DNA from: Candidatus Micrarchaeota archaeon
Lineage (GTDB): Archaea; Micrarchaeota; Micrarchaeia; Norongarragalinales; UBA8480
Direction of reading: 5' to 3'
Length of the DNA: 51,535 nt
Assembly: GCA_964514805.1 (NCBI GenBank)
Contig: CAZERP010000001.1
Coordinates: forward strand, 5,967 to 57,501
Shown here: positions 5,155 through 45,318 of the stretch, one piece after another
Layout: each line of letters opens with the position of its first letter
Numbering within the stretch: position 1 is the first letter of the stretch
Translations under genes and position numbers: made by a program
The notes under the pieces: generated by a model
Database searches by the model: none
Seen by the model: only the letters and a program-made list of their open reading frames with translations
Told to the model about the DNA's origin: nothing

Positions 5155-5529
5155 ATGACCTACGTAGACGGTTTTGTCTTAGTTATCCGTAAAGACAAAG
5201 TTAAAGATTATGAAAAAATGGCTAAACTTGGCAGTAAAGTTTGGAAAAAACACGGCGCGCTGCAATACTTTGAGTGCATTGGAGATGACATTAACCCAAA
5301 AATGGCCGGAATTAAAGGAAATTCATTTCCAAAGATGACTAAATTAAAGAAAAACGAAACAGTGTGGTTTTCTTTTATCATTTTCAAATCCAAAGCTCAC
5401 CGTGACAGTGTTAACGCGAAGGTTATGAAAGACCCAGCTATGAGCCCAGAGAATTGGAAAGATAAGCCAATGCCATTTGACATGAAAAGAATGGCATATG
5501 GTGGTTTTAAAACAATAGTCGAGGCGTAA
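5155..5529 (+). CDS. DUF1428 family protein
   Basis: MTYVDGFVLVI...HGALQYFECIGDD...ETVWFSFIIFKSKAHRDSVNAKVMKDPAM fits the DUF1428 pattern. AAGGTGA lies upstream. Confidence 0.85.
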   Translation: MTYVDGFVLVIRKDKVKDYEKMAKLGSKVWKKHGALQYFECIGDDINPKMAGIKGNSFPKMTKLKKNETVWFSFIIFKSKAHRDSVNAKVMKDPAMSPENWKDKPMPFDMKRMAYGGFKTIVEA

Positions 5530-22593: not shown

Positions 22594-22793
22594 AATTAAA
22601 AAATAGCCACGCCGAAGATTTAAGTTACGCTCTAGTATTGTACGCTTTGTAAGCTATTTAAACTTACGCGTTTTAGATATTATTTAAACGACAGCCCTGT
22701 TGTTTTTACGAATACAAAAGTCACTCTTTTTTTCTTCAATATTTCACAAAAAAAATAACATTTAAACAAAACCAGGTGCATTGAACTTTATTT

Positions 22794-23585
22794 ATGGTCG
22801 AACTACAAGATTTAGATAAACTTGAACAACAAAGTATATGGGTTTTAAGAGAAGCTAAAGCTCGATTCAAAAACCTCGCCGGACTTTGGAGCATGGGAAA
22901 AGACTCAACAGTAATGCTTGCATTAGCCCGTAAAGCGTTTTTTGGCAAAGTACCATTCCCCGTAATCCACATCGACAATGGAATTGACTTCAAAGAAACA
23001 TACGATTTTAGAAAGAAACTCACCGAAGAATGGAATCTAGACTTAATCGTAGCAAATAGCATCATCAAAGACGATTTAAGTGGAATCAAATGCTGCGGTT
23101 CAAACAAAACCGACGCGCTAAAGAAACTCCTAGACGAACGCGGATTTGATGGACTTGTCGTATCAATACGAAGAGACGAACACGGCATCCGAGCAAAAGA
23201 AAGATCATTCTCACCAAGAGACAAAGACTTCAAATGGAACTACAAAGACCAACCAGCAGAAGTATGGGAATACACAAGCAAATTTGAAGACACCTCACAT
23301 ACAAGAGTTCACCCCTTACTACAATGGAACGAAATTGACATCTGGAGATACATAAAACGCGAAGGAATACCAATCAACCCGCTATACTACGCTAACAGTG
23401 AAGGAATTAGATACAGAAGTCTTGGATGCACTCAATGTACAGTAGGAGTTAAGTCAAAAGCAACTACAATTGATGAAATAATTGAAGAACTCAAAAACAC
23501 TGAAGTTGCAGAACGTTCTGGAAGAATGCAAGACAAAGAAAAAGAAAACGTAATGCAAAGACTAAGAGCACTCGGCTACATGTAA
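22794..23585 (+). CDS. cysD: sulfate adenylyltransferase subunit 2
   Basis: PP-loop WSMGKDSTVML, RRDEHGIRAKERSFSPRD, RYRSLGCTQCT and the C-terminal RLRALGYM tail. Confidence 0.9.
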   Translation: MVELQDLDKLEQQSIWVLREAKARFKNLAGLWSMGKDSTVMLALARKAFFGKVPFPVIHIDNGIDFKETYDFRKKLTEEWNLDLIVANSIIKDDLSGIKCCGSNKTDALKKLLDERGFDGLVVSIRRDEHGIRAKERSFSPRDKDFKWNYKDQPAEVWEYTSKFEDTSHTRVHPLLQWNEIDIWRYIKREGIPINPLYYANSEGIRYRSLGCTQCTVGVKSKATTIDEIIEELKNTEVAERSGRMQDKEKENVMQRLRALGYM

Positions 23586-23656: not shown

Positions 23657-24919
23657 ATGGATTCTACTAAAGCAATTAACGTAGCTCTACTTGGGCACAA
23701 AGATCACGGCAAATCAACTTTAATCGGCAGATTACTATACGATACTAAATCAATTACTGAAGATCGTATTAGAGAAGCTCAAATAATGTCTAAGTCATTA
23801 GGAAAAGAATTCGAACTATGCTTTTTGCTTGACAGTTTTGAAGAAGAAAGAGAAGAAGGCTTCACATTAGATACTACAAGAGTACAAGTAGTACACCAAG
23901 GTGTCATTTACGACGTTATTGACGTTCCAGGTCACAAAGAACTTGTAAAAAACATGCTCACCGGCGCGTCACTAGCACACGCTGCGATCCTAATTATTTC
24001 AGCTAAACCAGACGAAGGACTTCAAGATGAAACTAAACTTCATATTTACCTCTCACGAATGCTTGGCATTAACAAACTAGTAATCGCAGTTAACAAAATG
24101 GACTTAATCAACTACGATAAAGCAAAGTTTGACGCGCTAACCTCACAAGTCACCGCGACGTTAGTTAATTTTGGGTTTAACGCCAAACAACTAGAATACG
24201 TGCCAATTTCTGCTAAAGATGGAGATAATGTCACGAAAAAGTCAAACAAAACCTCGTGGTATAGTGGCAAAATGATCATTGAGTACATGGAAGAATTTGC
24301 AAATTATGACTTCGAAAAAGAACTAAGCTCAAAACCCGCCCGTTTAATCGTACAAGACGTATACAACATTGACTCAAACCACGTAATCGTAGGTAAAATT
24401 GAATCCGGAACTTTCAAAGTTAAACAAGAAGTCATAATCGAACCCCTATCACTTAAAGGAAACATTGAAGAATTACACGTTGCAATGGACCGAAAAGACG
24501 CCGCGCACGCAGGCCAAAGTGTTGGCATTGTAATTAAAAGCGACGCGATTAAAAACGTGACCAGAGGTTGCGTTTGCATGCCAGTAAAAGAAGCAACCCC
24601 CACAGTAACTTCAGTTAATGCTAGAATCTTTTGTTTTCCAACCTGCGAACTTGCAACTGGAGAGAAGCTTAACTTTATTTGCGCAGCCCAAGAAGTTACA
24701 GGCAGTGTTGAATTAATAGTAGATAAAATAAACCCAATTACAGACAAAATGCCAATAAAAGTAAACGGTAGCGGATCAGTAAGTAACTCACAAGCAGCAG
24801 ATGTTAAAATTAAACTAGAAAAGCCAATGATACTTGAAAGTTTTAACAAATTGCCTCAAGTTGGTAGATTTGTAATATCTAAAAATGGCCGCATAATTGG
24901 TGTCGGCGTAGTACAATAA
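23657..24919 (+). CDS. cysN: sulfate adenylyltransferase subunit 1 (GTPase), no fused APS kinase
   Basis: G1 GHKDHGKSTLIGRLL (TLIGRLL is CysN-like, not EF-1alpha-like), DVPGH, NKMD and SAKDGDN. 420 aa, ending after the beta-barrel domains. Confidence 0.85.
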   Translation: MDSTKAINVALLGHKDHGKSTLIGRLLYDTKSITEDRIREAQIMSKSLGKEFELCFLLDSFEEEREEGFTLDTTRVQVVHQGVIYDVIDVPGHKELVKNMLTGASLAHAAILIISAKPDEGLQDETKLHIYLSRMLGINKLVIAVNKMDLINYDKAKFDALTSQVTATLVNFGFNAKQLEYVPISAKDGDNVTKKSNKTSWYSGKMIIEYMEEFANYDFEKELSSKPARLIVQDVYNIDSNHVIVGKIESGTFKVKQEVIIEPLSLKGNIEELHVAMDRKDAAHAGQSVGIVIKSDAIKNVTRGCVCMPVKEATPTVTSVNARIFCFPTCELATGEKLNFICAAQEVTGSVELIVDKINPITDKMPIKVNGSGSVSNSQAADVKIKLEKPMILESFNKLPQVGRFVISKNGRIIGVGVVQ

Positions 24920-24940: not shown

Positions 24941-25696
24941 ATGTTAATAATTGGTCTTGACGGCGCAACTTGGAGTAAAATAAACGCGAATTTAGACGAA
25001 CTACCTAATTTTAAAAAATTAAAAGAAAAATACAAACACGCAGTACTAGAATGTGACGTTAGACCAGTTCACTCTGCGCCTTCTTGGACTACTATATTTA
25101 CTGGAGTTCTTCCAAGCGAGCATGGGGTTTTGGACTTTGCAATTGATGAAAAACAGAGAAGCGAATTAGAAAACCGAAGTGACTTTATTTGGAAAATTGC
25201 AAAAAGCGCAGTTGTAATGCCAGTTGCTATTGCAATACCTCCAATTGCGTACAATTTTTCATTAGATAAATGGGAGTCTTTAGTTTTTTCAATTACTAGC
25301 GAAGAAATGAACGAAAGCACTACCTATACGTTGGAAAGAACTATTGAACTATTACAAAGTAAGAATCGCCCAGAGTTAATTGTTTCAATTTTTTACGAAA
25401 CTGACCGCGCTCAACACGTTTACTGGCACGATGAAGCAAAAATAGTAGCTCACTATGCAAATATAGATAAAGCGCTAGGCAAGTTAATGCCTTTTTTTGA
25501 AAAAGAAAACTTCCTCATATTAAGTGATCATGGTTTTACAAACGCGCAAGAAACCAAAGACAACAAGTGGGACACTGTAAGAAGTAACCAAACTGGCGGC
25601 CATCACCCTAGTGGCATTGTCATCTCAAATTTAGAACCGCCACGCAAAGTAACACAAGTGTACTCTTTTATTAAGAAAGAACTCAAAATGAGTTAA
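24941..25696 (+). CDS. alkaline-phosphatase-superfamily protein (type I phosphodiesterase/NPP, COG1524-like), short paralog
   Basis: GLDGATW, SAPSWTTIFTG (nucleophile region), ETDRAQHVYWH, LSDHGF and GGHH. Confidence 0.75.
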   Translation: MLIIGLDGATWSKINANLDELPNFKKLKEKYKHAVLECDVRPVHSAPSWTTIFTGVLPSEHGVLDFAIDEKQRSELENRSDFIWKIAKSAVVMPVAIAIPPIAYNFSLDKWESLVFSITSEEMNESTTYTLERTIELLQSKNRPELIVSIFYETDRAQHVYWHDEAKIVAHYANIDKALGKLMPFFEKENFLILSDHGFTNAQETKDNKWDTVRSNQTGGHHPSGIVISNLEPPRKVTQVYSFIKKELKMS

Positions 25697-25699
25697 GGT

Positions 25700-26473
25700 A
25701 TGCTTTTTGAAATAAACCTAATATTAGCCGGCTTAGTTGTAGGCATTTGTGTTGGCCTAACTAGCATCGGACTTGGAATGATCCAACTACCCTTACTACT
25801 CGCACTTACTACACTAACTCCTTCCGCTGCTGCAAGCGTTGGCTTAATTCAAGGCAGTTTAATGAAATGGACCGGCATGTGGCGTAGTGCTAAAAAGAAA
25901 AACATAGACTATAGTGTCGTATTACCTTTTGTAGTTCTTGGAATTCCATTTACTGCACTTGGAGTTTACATGCGAAGCTATATTCCTGCAGATTTGCTTA
26001 AAAGTATTATCGGCATCACAATGGTAGCAATGGGAGTAATGCTAGTTTCTACTACGTGGTTTAGTCAAGTAAAAATTCGAGTACAAAAAATAATCGACTT
26101 CTGTCGAACACATAAAAAGTCAATATCCGTAATTGCAGGAATAATCACTGGTTTTATGGTTGGCTTAACTAGCATTGGAAGCGGCTCATTTATCATAATC
26201 ATACTATCCACCGTATTACTACTACCACCTACGATTGCAGTTGGGACTAATTTAATGATCGGCGGAATCCTAGTCGCTACTGGTGGAATCGTAAGCGCAA
26301 TTACTAGCAACATTAATTATGACATAGTAATTAGCTTGCTAATAGGTTCAATTCCCGGCGTTTTAATTGGAGGCAAAATAGCACCAAAAGTACCCGTTAA
26401 ACCAATGCGCGCTGTAATCGCAATTTTAGTCATAATAAGCGGCCTGGATATGGCTTTTAAAATAATAAAATAA
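25700..26473 (+). CDS. TauE/SafE (TSUP) family anion permease
   Basis: 257 aa with 8 predicted TM helices and a 4+4 internal repeat, each half carrying VGLTSIG(L/S)G. Confidence 0.85.
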   Translation: MLFEINLILAGLVVGICVGLTSIGLGMIQLPLLLALTTLTPSAAASVGLIQGSLMKWTGMWRSAKKKNIDYSVVLPFVVLGIPFTALGVYMRSYIPADLLKSIIGITMVAMGVMLVSTTWFSQVKIRVQKIIDFCRTHKKSISVIAGIITGFMVGLTSIGSGSFIIIILSTVLLLPPTIAVGTNLMIGGILVATGGIVSAITSNINYDIVISLLIGSIPGVLIGGKIAPKVPVKPMRAVIAILVIISGLDMAFKIIK

Positions 26474-26548: not shown

Positions 26549-26749
26549 ATGTCTAAATCTATTACACTAAAGGACGCGACTTTTACTCGCGCGGAAAAAG
26601 AAGCTAAAGCTAACGGTTTTAGTGACGTTTCAGAATACGTTTCAAGCGTATTAGAAGAAATTTTTAGCGCAATAGATGAAGAAAAAAGCGCAGATGTTGA
26701 TGACGATGACGTAAAGAAACGTTTACGCGCGCTAGGTTACAAAGATTAA
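26549..26749 (+). CDS. small RHH(CopG)-like protein with acidic linker and CysD-like RLRALGY C-terminal tail
   Basis: 66 aa. SITLKDATFTRAEKEAKANGFSDVSEYVSSVLEEIF has a strand-helix-helix pattern, followed by DEEKSADVDDDD and then KKRLRALGYKD. GAGGT lies upstream. Confidence 0.5.
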   Translation: MSKSITLKDATFTRAEKEAKANGFSDVSEYVSSVLEEIFSAIDEEKSADVDDDDVKKRLRALGYKD

Positions 26750-26762
26750 GAGCTAGATAAAC

Positions 26763-28397
26763 ATGACGAAACGCGTACTAGTAATTGGAATTGACTCGGG
26801 TACTTTTGACTTGATAAAACCATGGGCAAAAGCAGGACACTTACCTAACTTAGGTAAATTAATTGAAAGCGGAGTACACGGCAGTTTTGTTGACTCATGG
26901 CTTCCAATAACCGCGCCAAGATGGACTACTATTTCTACTGGCAAAAATCCCGGCAAGCATGGAATTTTTGACTTTAGTAACATGCTAACAAATTACAAAA
27001 CTAAACCCGTTTCAAGCAAAGATATAGACGCAAAACCACTATACTCCCTTATTTCAGATGCAGGTAAAAAAGTCTTAGTACTAAACTACCCCATCACATA
27101 TCCATGTACTTGCGTAGATGGACATATGGTTGCCGGAATGCCAGCACCGATGTTAAATGAAAAAGCAGTTTATCCCCTAGAAATTCTTGAAGAAATTAAA
27201 GCTAGAAATTACAAAATTCTACCCGAAGAAGTTTATGACGGTACAAATGAAGAGTCAATACTCAAAGAATTACATGAAGTAATTGACAACCAATGTACAC
27301 TAGCTAAAGAATTCGTAACTACAAAGGAATGGGAATTTTGCTTTAACGTTTTCTTTAACACAGACATTGCAGGTCACTGGTTTTGGAAGCACATGGATGA
27401 AACCCATCCTGAGCACAACCAAAGAGCCGCTAAATACAAAGACGCGATTTTAGATGTTTACAAAAAAGCCGACAAAAGTGTAGGCGAGTTAATACAAGCC
27501 GCAGGCAAAGACACTACAGTATTCATAGTTTCAGATCACGGCATGGGCCCATTATACAAGGACATTTTTATCAACAACTGGCTATTGCAAAAAGGGTTTT
27601 TGAAATTAAAGAAAAACGCGATCAGCCGATTAAAATACGCAATGCACAAAGGCGGTTTTACTCTTGAAAACATGTATTCTATTGTCAAAAAGACAGGCCT
27701 TGCAAAACTTACCGCTAAAAATTCAGACGAAGCAGAAAACGCCAGGCAGTTTATTTTGAATAACTTTTTCATTTCATTTGATGACGTAGACTGGAGCAAA
27801 ACAGTAGCATTTTCATCTACTAACTATGGCCCGATTTTTATTAACCTTAAAGGCCGACAAGCGCAAGGAATTGTAAACCCGGGCGAAGAGTATGAAAAGG
27901 TTTGCCGCGAAGTTGCTAATTCATTGCTTGAAATTAAAGACGAAAAAGGAGAACAAGTTGTCGAAGTAGTAAAAGTTAAAAGCGAAATTGTAAGTGGAGA
28001 TCACCTAAACCAAGCACCAGACATAGTTTTTAGAATTAAAGGCATGAAATACACGACTAATCGTTATTTCGAATTTGGTTCAAACAAACTCTTCGGAAGC
28101 CCACACAGAGGAATGTCTGGAGATCATAGAGATAATGGAATTTTCATAGCAAATGGCCCGGATATTAAAAAGTCAAGCGAACAAGTTACTTTTAGGATGA
28201 TTGACCTTGCCCCTACTATATTGCACTTACTTGAATTGCCAATTCCAAACGACATGGACGGCGCAGCAGTCACCAGCATATTTGATGAAAATAGCCCTGT
28301 TTTTAAGAGAAAAATTGAAATTAACTCCAAAGTGCCAACTGTTAAAAAGTACGGCCGCGAAATGATTAAAAGAGTAATTTCAAAGATCAAACACTAA
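26763..28397 (+). CDS. alkaline-phosphatase-superfamily protein (type I phosphodiesterase/NPP, COG1524-like), long paralog
   Basis: GIDSGTF, TAPRWTTISTG, NTDIAGHWFWKH, VSDHGMGP and SGDHRDNG. The N-terminus is paralogous to 24941-25696. Confidence 0.8.
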   Translation: MTKRVLVIGIDSGTFDLIKPWAKAGHLPNLGKLIESGVHGSFVDSWLPITAPRWTTISTGKNPGKHGIFDFSNMLTNYKTKPVSSKDIDAKPLYSLISDAGKKVLVLNYPITYPCTCVDGHMVAGMPAPMLNEKAVYPLEILEEIKARNYKILPEEVYDGTNEESILKELHEVIDNQCTLAKEFVTTKEWEFCFNVFFNTDIAGHWFWKHMDETHPEHNQRAAKYKDAILDVYKKADKSVGELIQAAGKDTTVFIVSDHGMGPLYKDIFINNWLLQKGFLKLKKNAISRLKYAMHKGGFTLENMYSIVKKTGLAKLTAKNSDEAENARQFILNNFFISFDDVDWSKTVAFSSTNYGPIFINLKGRQAQGIVNPGEEYEKVCREVANSLLEIKDEKGEQVVEVVKVKSEIVSGDHLNQAPDIVFRIKGMKYTTNRYFEFGSNKLFGSPHRGMSGDHRDNGIFIANGPDIKKSSEQVTFRMIDLAPTILHLLELPIPNDMDGAAVTSIFDENSPVFKRKIEINSKVPTVKKYGREMIKRVISKIKH

Positions 28398-45247: not shown

Positions 45248-45318
45248 TGCGTTTGCCGGGAATCGAACCCGGAGCTCAACCTTGGGAAGGTCGTACGTTA
45301 CCACTACACCACAAACGC
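45248..45318 (-). tRNA. tRNA-Gly (anticodon CCC)
   Basis: The reverse complement GCGTTTGTGGTGTAGTGGTAACGTACGACCTTCCCAAGGTTGAGCTCCGGGTTCGATTCCCGGCAAACGCA folds as a cloverleaf. It has a perfect 7-bp acceptor stem, a 5-bp T stem with a TTCGATT loop, an anticodon loop TTCCCAA and discriminator A73. No CCA is encoded. Confidence 0.9.

Follow-up and report, generated by a model that had tools for sequence, protein, structure and literature searches.

Toxin-antitoxin systems provide known examples of small ribbon-helix-helix (RHH) regulators whose tails bind a partner. The antitoxins ParD, RelB, CcdA and FitA, as well as NikR, have an N-terminal RHH domain and a C-terminal extension, which binds the toxin, or nickel, and modulates repression. 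Enzymes of the PAPS-reductase fold also have mobile tails, ECGLH in CysH and ...GY[FM] in CysD. A regulator gene in a sulfate cluster has been described from Pyrococcus yayanosii. [quoted passage not shown] The factor is named as putative only, and no tail, operator or function is given for it (PMC8268124).

The gene studied here lies in a stretch of 51,535 nt from a Candidatus Micrarchaeota archaeon, which as a whole is called the window, and encodes a protein of 66 aa. It resembles PYCH_17520 in being a small gene of the CopG/RHH type within a sulfate cluster, a likeness of description and not of compared sequences, but the Pyrococcus cluster has Sat, whereas here CysDN is found, an APS kinase is not detectable and the gene is placed mid-operon. 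Thermococcus metagenome-assembled genomes (L094, L099) carry a member of the same tailed family, with a PF01663-type gene 2.3 kb downstream. In fold, the ParD, FitA and NikR group gives the best matches to the 66-aa protein. Unlike the RHH antitoxins it has a permease and an AlkP-type enzyme as neighbours and no toxin gene; a type II antitoxin would be expected to have its cognate toxin gene next to it in a two-gene operon, and neither of the adjoining genes (TauE permease and a 544-aa PF01663 enzyme) belongs to a toxin family. Unlike both the antitoxins and NikR, it ends in no more than a 12-residue helix, which sits on a charged tether and is shared with metabolic enzymes. Its last 8–12 residues match those of CysD, but it has neither the ER-GR--DKE motif nor the catalytic fold of that enzyme, and the tail persists in genomes without CysD.

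The operon has the order cysD-cysN-PF01663-tauE-ORF-PF01663-glycosyltransferase, and those of its genes given in the following with positions are on the forward (+) strand. The cysD gene is of the short type (22794–23585, 263 aa) and was recognised by NF003587 with 301 bits against a cut-off of 195, by its PAPS_reduct domain and by its match to 1zun_A (E = 5e-56). It is followed by cysN (23657–24919), an EF-1alpha-like GTPase gene without a fused APS kinase, which has GTP_EFTU domains and matches CysN and EF-1alpha models. Next come a 251-aa enzyme of the PF01663 type I phosphodiesterase/alkaline-phosphatase superfamily (24941–25696), assigned by its PF01663 domain, and a TauE/SafE-type anion permease, assigned by a domain match (25700–26473). 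The small ORF (26549–26749, stop included) is located mid-operon, 3 kb downstream of cysDN and between tauE and the gene of the 544-aa enzyme (26763–28397, PF01663 domain), which starts 13 nt past its stop. This placing of the small gene, after tauE and 3 kb from cysD, has a similar counterpart in G244. The gene of the 251-aa enzyme is also found after cysN in loci of Dehalococcoidia, ANME-1 and the candidate phyla radiation, and in Archaeoglobi, Asgard and other loci the gene that comes next after the small one encodes a homologue of the 544-aa enzyme. When APS kinase was sought in the whole genome, which is 78% complete, no convincing candidate was found, the best PF01583 match having 22.8 bits. 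It may be that APS rather than PAPS feeds both PF01663 enzymes, or that cysC sits in the missing part of the genome. The window has a single tRNA gene at 45248–45318 (-), which is also its sole Rfam match.

CysD and the 66-aa protein have the heptapeptide RLRALGY in common, near both C-termini. The CysD C-terminus reads ...KENVMQRLRALGYM, with the tail VMQRLRALGYM at 23550–23582, and that of the small protein, which is translated as MSKSITLKDATFTRAEKEAKANGFSDVSEYVSSVLEEIFSAIDEEKSADVDDDDVKKRLRALGYKD, reads ...DDDDVKKRLRALGYKD. In cysD the heptapeptide is encoded by aga cta aga gca ctc ggc tac, in the small ORF by cgt tta cgc gcg cta ggt tac; 6 of the 7 codons differ. A sequence-only reading of this DNA had pointed out the shared ending and its different codons, and had taken it to be kept at the protein level and not to be a recent DNA copy; the translations, the codons and the selection described below agree with it on all of these points. 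It had also called for a search with the pattern [KR]L[KR]xLGY, and a six-frame scan of the 899-kb (0.9-Mb) genome, covering 12,948 stop-to-stop ORFs of at least 30 aa, found the pattern only in CysD and the small ORF, 1 and 2 residues from the respective C-termini. From the genome's own amino-acid frequencies, RLRALGY is expected in about 1e-3 copies anywhere in the genome and about 2e-5 near a C-terminus. As only two ORFs carry the motif against this expectation of about 1e-3, the shared heptapeptide is real and not due to chance.

Two orthologous clusters, P0001 with 97% and P0002 with 68% identity to the 66-aa protein, have the gene order of the window (cysN, PF01663 gene, tauE, ORF, PF01663 gene). 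Compared with the 68%-identical orthologue, the small ORF has a dN/dS of 0.15, and the protein sequence of the tail is identical although 4 of the 7 tail codons differ, all of them synonymously. Because a syntenic orthologue at this distance gives such a ratio, with synonymous changes inside the tail codons, 26549–26749 is, judged by these comparisons, a genuine coding gene under purifying selection, as its roughly 45 full-length small homologues also indicate. The protein's own clade, which ends in 'LGYKD', is represented by these two clusters only among 5.8 billion proteins, and no further relatives of the clade were found in two metagenome scans.

The AlphaFold2 model, built from a 42-sequence family alignment, has a pLDDT above 90 (91–94) for residues 1–40 (26549–26668), with residues 1–8 extended, a helix from 9 to 21 and a second helix from 27. 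The best Foldseek matches are all RHH proteins (1y9b, NikR, ParD, MazE9, FitA and Arc) with probabilities up to 0.99, and NikR superposes on the small protein at an rmsd of 1.0 Å over 40 residues. The NGFSDVS turn, read from the sequence, corresponds to the G-x-S/T cap that helix 2 of RHH proteins usually has, and the β-strand, SITLKD, deviates from the family consensus. Thus the strand-helix-helix pattern that had been read from the N-terminus is reproduced by the model and by its structural matches, and residues 1–40 are predicted to fold as an RHH DNA-binding domain. On its own, the 66-aa protein matched no family in Pfam or NCBIfam at E <= 0.1. Among the 42 family members, 9 match RHH_1, 4 RHH_5, 3 FitA-like and 11 NikR profiles, all weakly, and a paralogue in L056 matches RHH_1 above the cut-off. 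Two other identities were rejected: CheR_N, which is matched by 22 of the 42 members, always below the gathering score and over RHH helix 2 only, and PG_binding_2 or POTRA, whose weak sub-threshold matches over the tail reflect a generic L..LGY helix cap.

A HMMER search of 1.8 billion representatives gave about 45 homologues of 61–78 aa that align over their full length with the 66-aa protein (phmmer E = 1.6e-6 to 1e-3), and all of them end in RLRxLGY[LMI][DE] behind a charged linker. Some long 'homologues' (P0003–P0005, P0017 and P0044) are without the LGY motif, and look like spurious matches caused by repeats or composition. The layout of the family, 60–80 aa with an RHH domain, a charged linker of variable length and a [KR]L[KR]xLGY tail 0–3 residues from the end, is also that of the 66-aa protein. 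Here the linker, AIDEEKSADVDDDD, is acidic as read from the sequence and covers residues 41–54 (26669–26710), while the tail, VKKRLRALGYKD, covers residues 55–66 (26711–26746); both have a pLDDT of 60–70. Just four columns are invariant in the 42-member alignment, L59, L62, G63 and Y64, and all four lie in the tail. The LGY tail is a tethered amphipathic helix of 12 residues; by this alignment nothing else in the family is so well conserved, the DNA-binding domain included. In terms of sequence, the 66-aa protein is a divergent member of a large and widespread family which has neither a name nor a curated model.

In the family loci, a pattern [LIVM]xx[LIVMF]GY at most 4 residues from the end was found in 218 of 19,939 ORFs, as compared to 7 in a control shifted 20 residues upstream, an approximately 30-fold enrichment at the C-terminus. 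The 218 ORFs encode 136 RHH proteins, 57 CysD, 8 APS kinases, 4 sulfatase or PF01663 enzymes and 13 unassigned proteins, the last being about the background number. The tail is a trait of the small-protein family itself and no copy of a CysD feature; it occurs also on APS kinases and on enzymes of the sulfatase/alkaline-phosphatase type. Malate dehydrogenases end in LKKLGY. Haloarchaeal sulfatase and PF01663 enzymes were observed to end in tails behind acidic linkers, for example RLEALGYK and RLRGLGYIE (L071 8651–9904, 16061–17575 and 18124–20043; L088 10299–11963), and one Haloferax locus holds several LGY-tailed enzymes. The PF01663 enzymes of about 540 aa (window 28320–28394; L055, L066, L084 and L096) end in a basic amphipathic helix, KKYGREMIKRVISKIKH in the window and K-RI--LK-SG-I elsewhere, which is loosely similar to the LGY tail.

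Among the 120 nearest homologues of CysD, 115 end in L..LGY[ML], with labels including Nitrospirae, Patescibacteria, Micrarchaeota and Methanothrix, and the Pseudomonas CysD (1ZUN) ends in ...EEKKRQGYF at the aligned position. Since both the homologues and the Pseudomonas enzyme share such an ending, the G-Y-hydrophobic terminus is, on this alignment, native to CysD. In the AlphaFold2 monomer of CysD the core is above 90, and residues 240–263, many of them invariant, have a pLDDT below 50. The 1zun_A coordinates hold 204 of 325 residues according to Foldseek, in agreement with the first aligned stretch (residues 25–233), from which we infer that the C-terminal approximately 90 residues, tail included, are not in the coordinates. 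Conserved, with a low pLDDT in the monomer and apparently unmodelled in 1ZUN, the CysD tail looks like a mobile element, as far as can be judged from models. 1zun is the sole crystal structure of CysD with CysN, and the conserved C-terminal third of CysD is without an experimental structure.

A profile-profile comparison of CysD with the small family gave an hhalign probability of 87% (E = 3.8e-6); the match extends over 64 columns and owes its strength mainly to the tail, and common descent of the tail module in the two is possible. The C-terminal region of CysD is marked by an ER-GR--DKE motif followed by M-x-x-[LK]-[RK]-x-x-G-Y-[MF] at the end. The ER-GR--DKE motif is invariant in 72 CysD sequences and absent from the small protein, which shares only the last part of CysD, V-K-K-R-L-R-A-L-G-Y, and not its C-terminal region as such. 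The CysD tail is also kept where the small protein is missing, as in a Nitrospiria cluster made up of a NusG paralogue, CysD, CysN and a PF01663 gene. In L115 (5359–9330) the Nitrospiria cysD-cysN-PF01663 genes are placed in a polysaccharide locus, with the NusG paralogue ahead of them instead of an RHH protein.

The sequence-only reading had proposed a test of linkage to cysDN, and within the phylum this linkage is very strong. The family profile matches 132 of 301 phylum genomes; in 6 of these only a CysD C-terminus was matched, which leaves 126 genomes with the small protein. Most of the 126 have a second, weaker match at the C-terminus of an ORF of about 265 aa located about 1 kb away, and in about 85 genomes the second-best match of the profile is the C-terminus of CysD. 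CysD is present in 114 and absent in 12 of the genomes with the small protein, and present in 6 and absent in 169 of those without it (Fisher's exact p = 2e-60, with the reservation that the genomes are related and the samples not independent). In 23 of 29 foreign loci the flanks of the small gene, taken to 1.5 kb, contain CysD, which ends in [KR]L[RK]x[LF]GY[MLF]; the usual order is small gene, cysD and cysN on one strand.

Three relatives within the phylum are without CysD, and in them the gene right after the small one encodes a Sat-type ATP sulfurylase (PF01747 plus PUA_2). The places concerned are L127 7040–8394, L128 8047–9399 and L126 6891–8293. By gene order and domain content, the regulator has been kept in these relatives and the ATP sulfurylase behind it displaced by a non-orthologous enzyme. 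In a fourth CysD-less genome the small gene adjoins a sulfatase and a PAPS-reductase paralogue ending in KKLRELGYN, and a match to CysN was sought beside this paralogue in a stretch of 16.5 kb, with none found. Two PAPS-reductase-fold paralogues, at 5445–6236 in L125 and 1205–2041 in L111, end in RELGY[NM] and match CysD by phmmer with E = 3e-18 and 2e-29, respectively; no CysN match was found near them within 16.5 kb in L125 and 3.9 kb in L111.

Outside the phylum, 80 loci were collected from named genomes of Dehalococcoidia, ANME-1/Methanophagales, Archaeoglobi, Hadarchaeota, Thermococcus, Asgard, Nitrososphaerales, haloarchaea and Desulfotomaculum; Methanothrix and one bacterium of the candidate phyla radiation also carry the family. 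A typical cluster opens with another RHH paralogue, whose tail is ERLRRLGYL, and goes on with the small protein, CysD, CysN and a PF01663 gene, and the type found in Archaeoglobi has the small protein, a PF01663 gene and an APS kinase with the tail KLKELGYL. Of 50 loci of at least 8 kb from other phyla, 31 have AlkP-type genes, 19 CysD and 12 APS kinase; at least one of the three is present in 36, while 14 have none of them near the family member. AlkP-type enzymes, either PF01663 or sulfatase-like, are thus the most frequent neighbours, yet not universal. Taken by gene content, the family tracks sulfate activation with either CysDN or Sat as the ATP sulfurylase. It was also observed that a second RHH paralogue (MxDKVTIKIPRELY..., tail EEVKAIRERLRRLGYL) is encoded directly upstream of the small gene in Dehalococcoidia and ANME-1, often overlapping it (loci L035–L091, for example L056 9777–9992 and L082 273–482), and has a palindrome of its own, ACTACAATTAGAGT.

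To compare upstream DNA, the family members were grouped by the sequence of their RHH β-strand, and each strand-defined subfamily turned out to have its own palindrome about 20–35 nt upstream of the start codon. In the KYTTITIP subfamily AATGTTATAACATT is found in 16 of 20 members, as compared to 1 of 122 others, and in the printed upstream sequences it comes after a TATA-like element. The KVTIKIP paralogue has the palindrome named above in 15 of 29 members (1 of 113 others), and the KYTTVSIP subfamily has two or more copies of TAATTA in 8 of 13 (2 of 129 others). Since the recognition strand pairs with its own operator-like sequence in each subfamily, these candidate operators point to autoregulating repressors in the sister subfamilies. 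For the small protein's own clade, only short and unconvincing repeats were found in the window, both ahead of cysD and ahead of the ORF. Even against the 97%-identical relative, conservation is poor in the 75 nt before the small ORF. The non-coding region upstream of cysD (22594–22793) is a candidate control region, and it has a block of about 90 nt (22627–22720) that is approximately 95% identical to L002, with diverging flanks. Within the block are TATA-like TATTTAAA elements with GTAAG/CTTAC on their flanks. The T(T)ACGC repeats in front of cysD were rejected as an operator, all three carrying a substitution in L002, the 97% relative.

It is probable, though far from certain, that the 66-aa protein is an RHH repressor or autoregulator which acts on the sulfate-activation/sulfation operon and whose enzyme-like tail, on its tether, contacts a component of the pathway. 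The RHH domain would repress or autoregulate the operon, the tail, which resembles the mobile C-terminal tail of short-type CysD, would touch a pathway component, either a protein or possibly an effector-bound state, and transcription of the operon would then track the state of the pathway. A more specific form of this prediction is tentative and in our view rather doubtful. In it the LGY tail is a pathway-wide feedback peptide, and the repressor bears a tethered copy of the mobile lid or arm that is used by CysD and, elsewhere, by APS kinase and AlkP-type enzymes. The copy would fit into the site that the enzymes' own arm occupies on an enzyme of the sulfate pathway, or would bind the activated-sulfate ligand which that arm binds, so that transcription is set by the occupancy of the enzymes.

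The tail could instead dock on the AlkP-superfamily enzymes of the cluster, and in this way bring the regulator, as well as CysD and APS kinase, into contact with the consumer of activated sulfate by a tether. The frequency of AlkP-type neighbours (31 of 50 long loci) speaks for such docking, as do the 13 nt between the small ORF and the PF01663 gene, the position of the small gene directly upstream of a PF01663 or AlkP-type gene in Archaeoglobi, Asgard and Desulfotomaculum, and the PF01663 genes in cysDN clusters of Nitrospiria and the candidate phyla radiation. We find it unlikely, however, when some AlkP-type enzymes in Halobacteriaceae and Haloferax bear the tail themselves, when 19 of the 50 long loci are without a recognised AlkP-type gene (phmmer, with the two PF01663 enzymes of the window and one sulfatase as queries), and when in a Methanothrix cysDN locus none was called within 6 kb.

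There may also be no shared partner at all. Other RHH repressors, such as Mnt, tetramerise via C-terminal extensions, and this counts for a reading where the tail self-associates, or caps its helix, and oligomerises the repressor on DNA, its likeness to CysD and APS kinase being convergent. L-x-x-L-G-Y suits a generic helix C-cap that recurs in unrelated folds, the tails of APS kinase and CysD are native to their own families, and bacterial CysD ends in ...KKRQGYF, making G-Y-hydrophobic ancestral there. We regard this reading as quite unlikely, however: the only two motif ORFs of the genome lie in one operon, the pattern is enriched about 30-fold at the C-terminus in the family loci, the tail is conserved above the DNA-binding domain, and the profile-profile match to CysD reaches past the cap.

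The sequence-only reading had favoured CysN as the shared partner, with the tail as a docking peptide common to CysD and the RHH protein, which would compete for CysN or sense the assembly of CysD with CysN. The co-occurrence and adjacency with cysDN in the phylum agree with this, as do the second-best profile matches to CysD and a conserved CysD tail that has no structure in the model of the monomer and is left unmodelled in the crystal of the complex. The wider survey did not bear it out. Among 18 genomes with a tailed protein and no cysD nearby, 17 have no CysD above the model cut-off anywhere, and the tail is essentially the same. Because tailed proteins persist in CysD-less genomes and Sat loci, and the CysD tail is kept in Nitrospiria without the small protein, CysN is unlikely to be the partner as a general rule. 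The tails of APS kinases and sulfatase/AlkP-type enzymes, and those of the PAPS-reductase-fold paralogues with no CysN match nearby, also argue against it, and so do L-to-F changes that are found in one tail of a locus and have no counterpart in its second tail; inspection by eye showed no co-variation between the two. Docking on CysN is therefore a very unlikely explanation for the tail, and a local interaction with CysN or CysD in this organism is possible. A likeness to the C-terminal tail of the archaeal ribosomal stalk protein P1, which binds EF-1alpha-type GTPases, was also considered.

That the tail is a C-terminal degron or a membrane-targeting helix, giving the regulator and the enzymes a shared turnover or a location at the permease, is hardly credible: it is a basic-amphipathic helix at the extreme C-terminus after a flexible linker, and the TauE permease gene adjoins the ORF, but membrane-targeting helices do not typically have an invariant G-Y or, as is frequent here, an acidic residue at the end, and the tail is confined to proteins of the pathway. 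As known motifs, the HbYX of the proteasome was rejected on a Tyr that is not penultimate, the PIP box of PCNA on conserved positions that do not fit, and a MinD-type membrane helix on the invariant G-Y.

A full-text search of the literature for the tail motif strings and the gene combination returned nothing relevant, and the searchable literature does not describe a regulator that has, as its best-conserved element, a peptide in common with the metabolic enzymes of the pathway it accompanies. The family ranges over small-genome archaea, ANME-1, Archaeoglobi, Thermococcus, Asgard, haloarchaea, Dehalococcoidia and bacteria of the candidate phyla radiation. If the feedback prediction is true, it would be a circuit of mimicry between regulator and enzyme that is conserved across archaea and several bacterial phyla. 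The identity of the tail receptor would explain how sulfate activation for the sulfation of glycans is controlled, and also what role is played by the conserved and structurally unresolved C-terminus of CysD.
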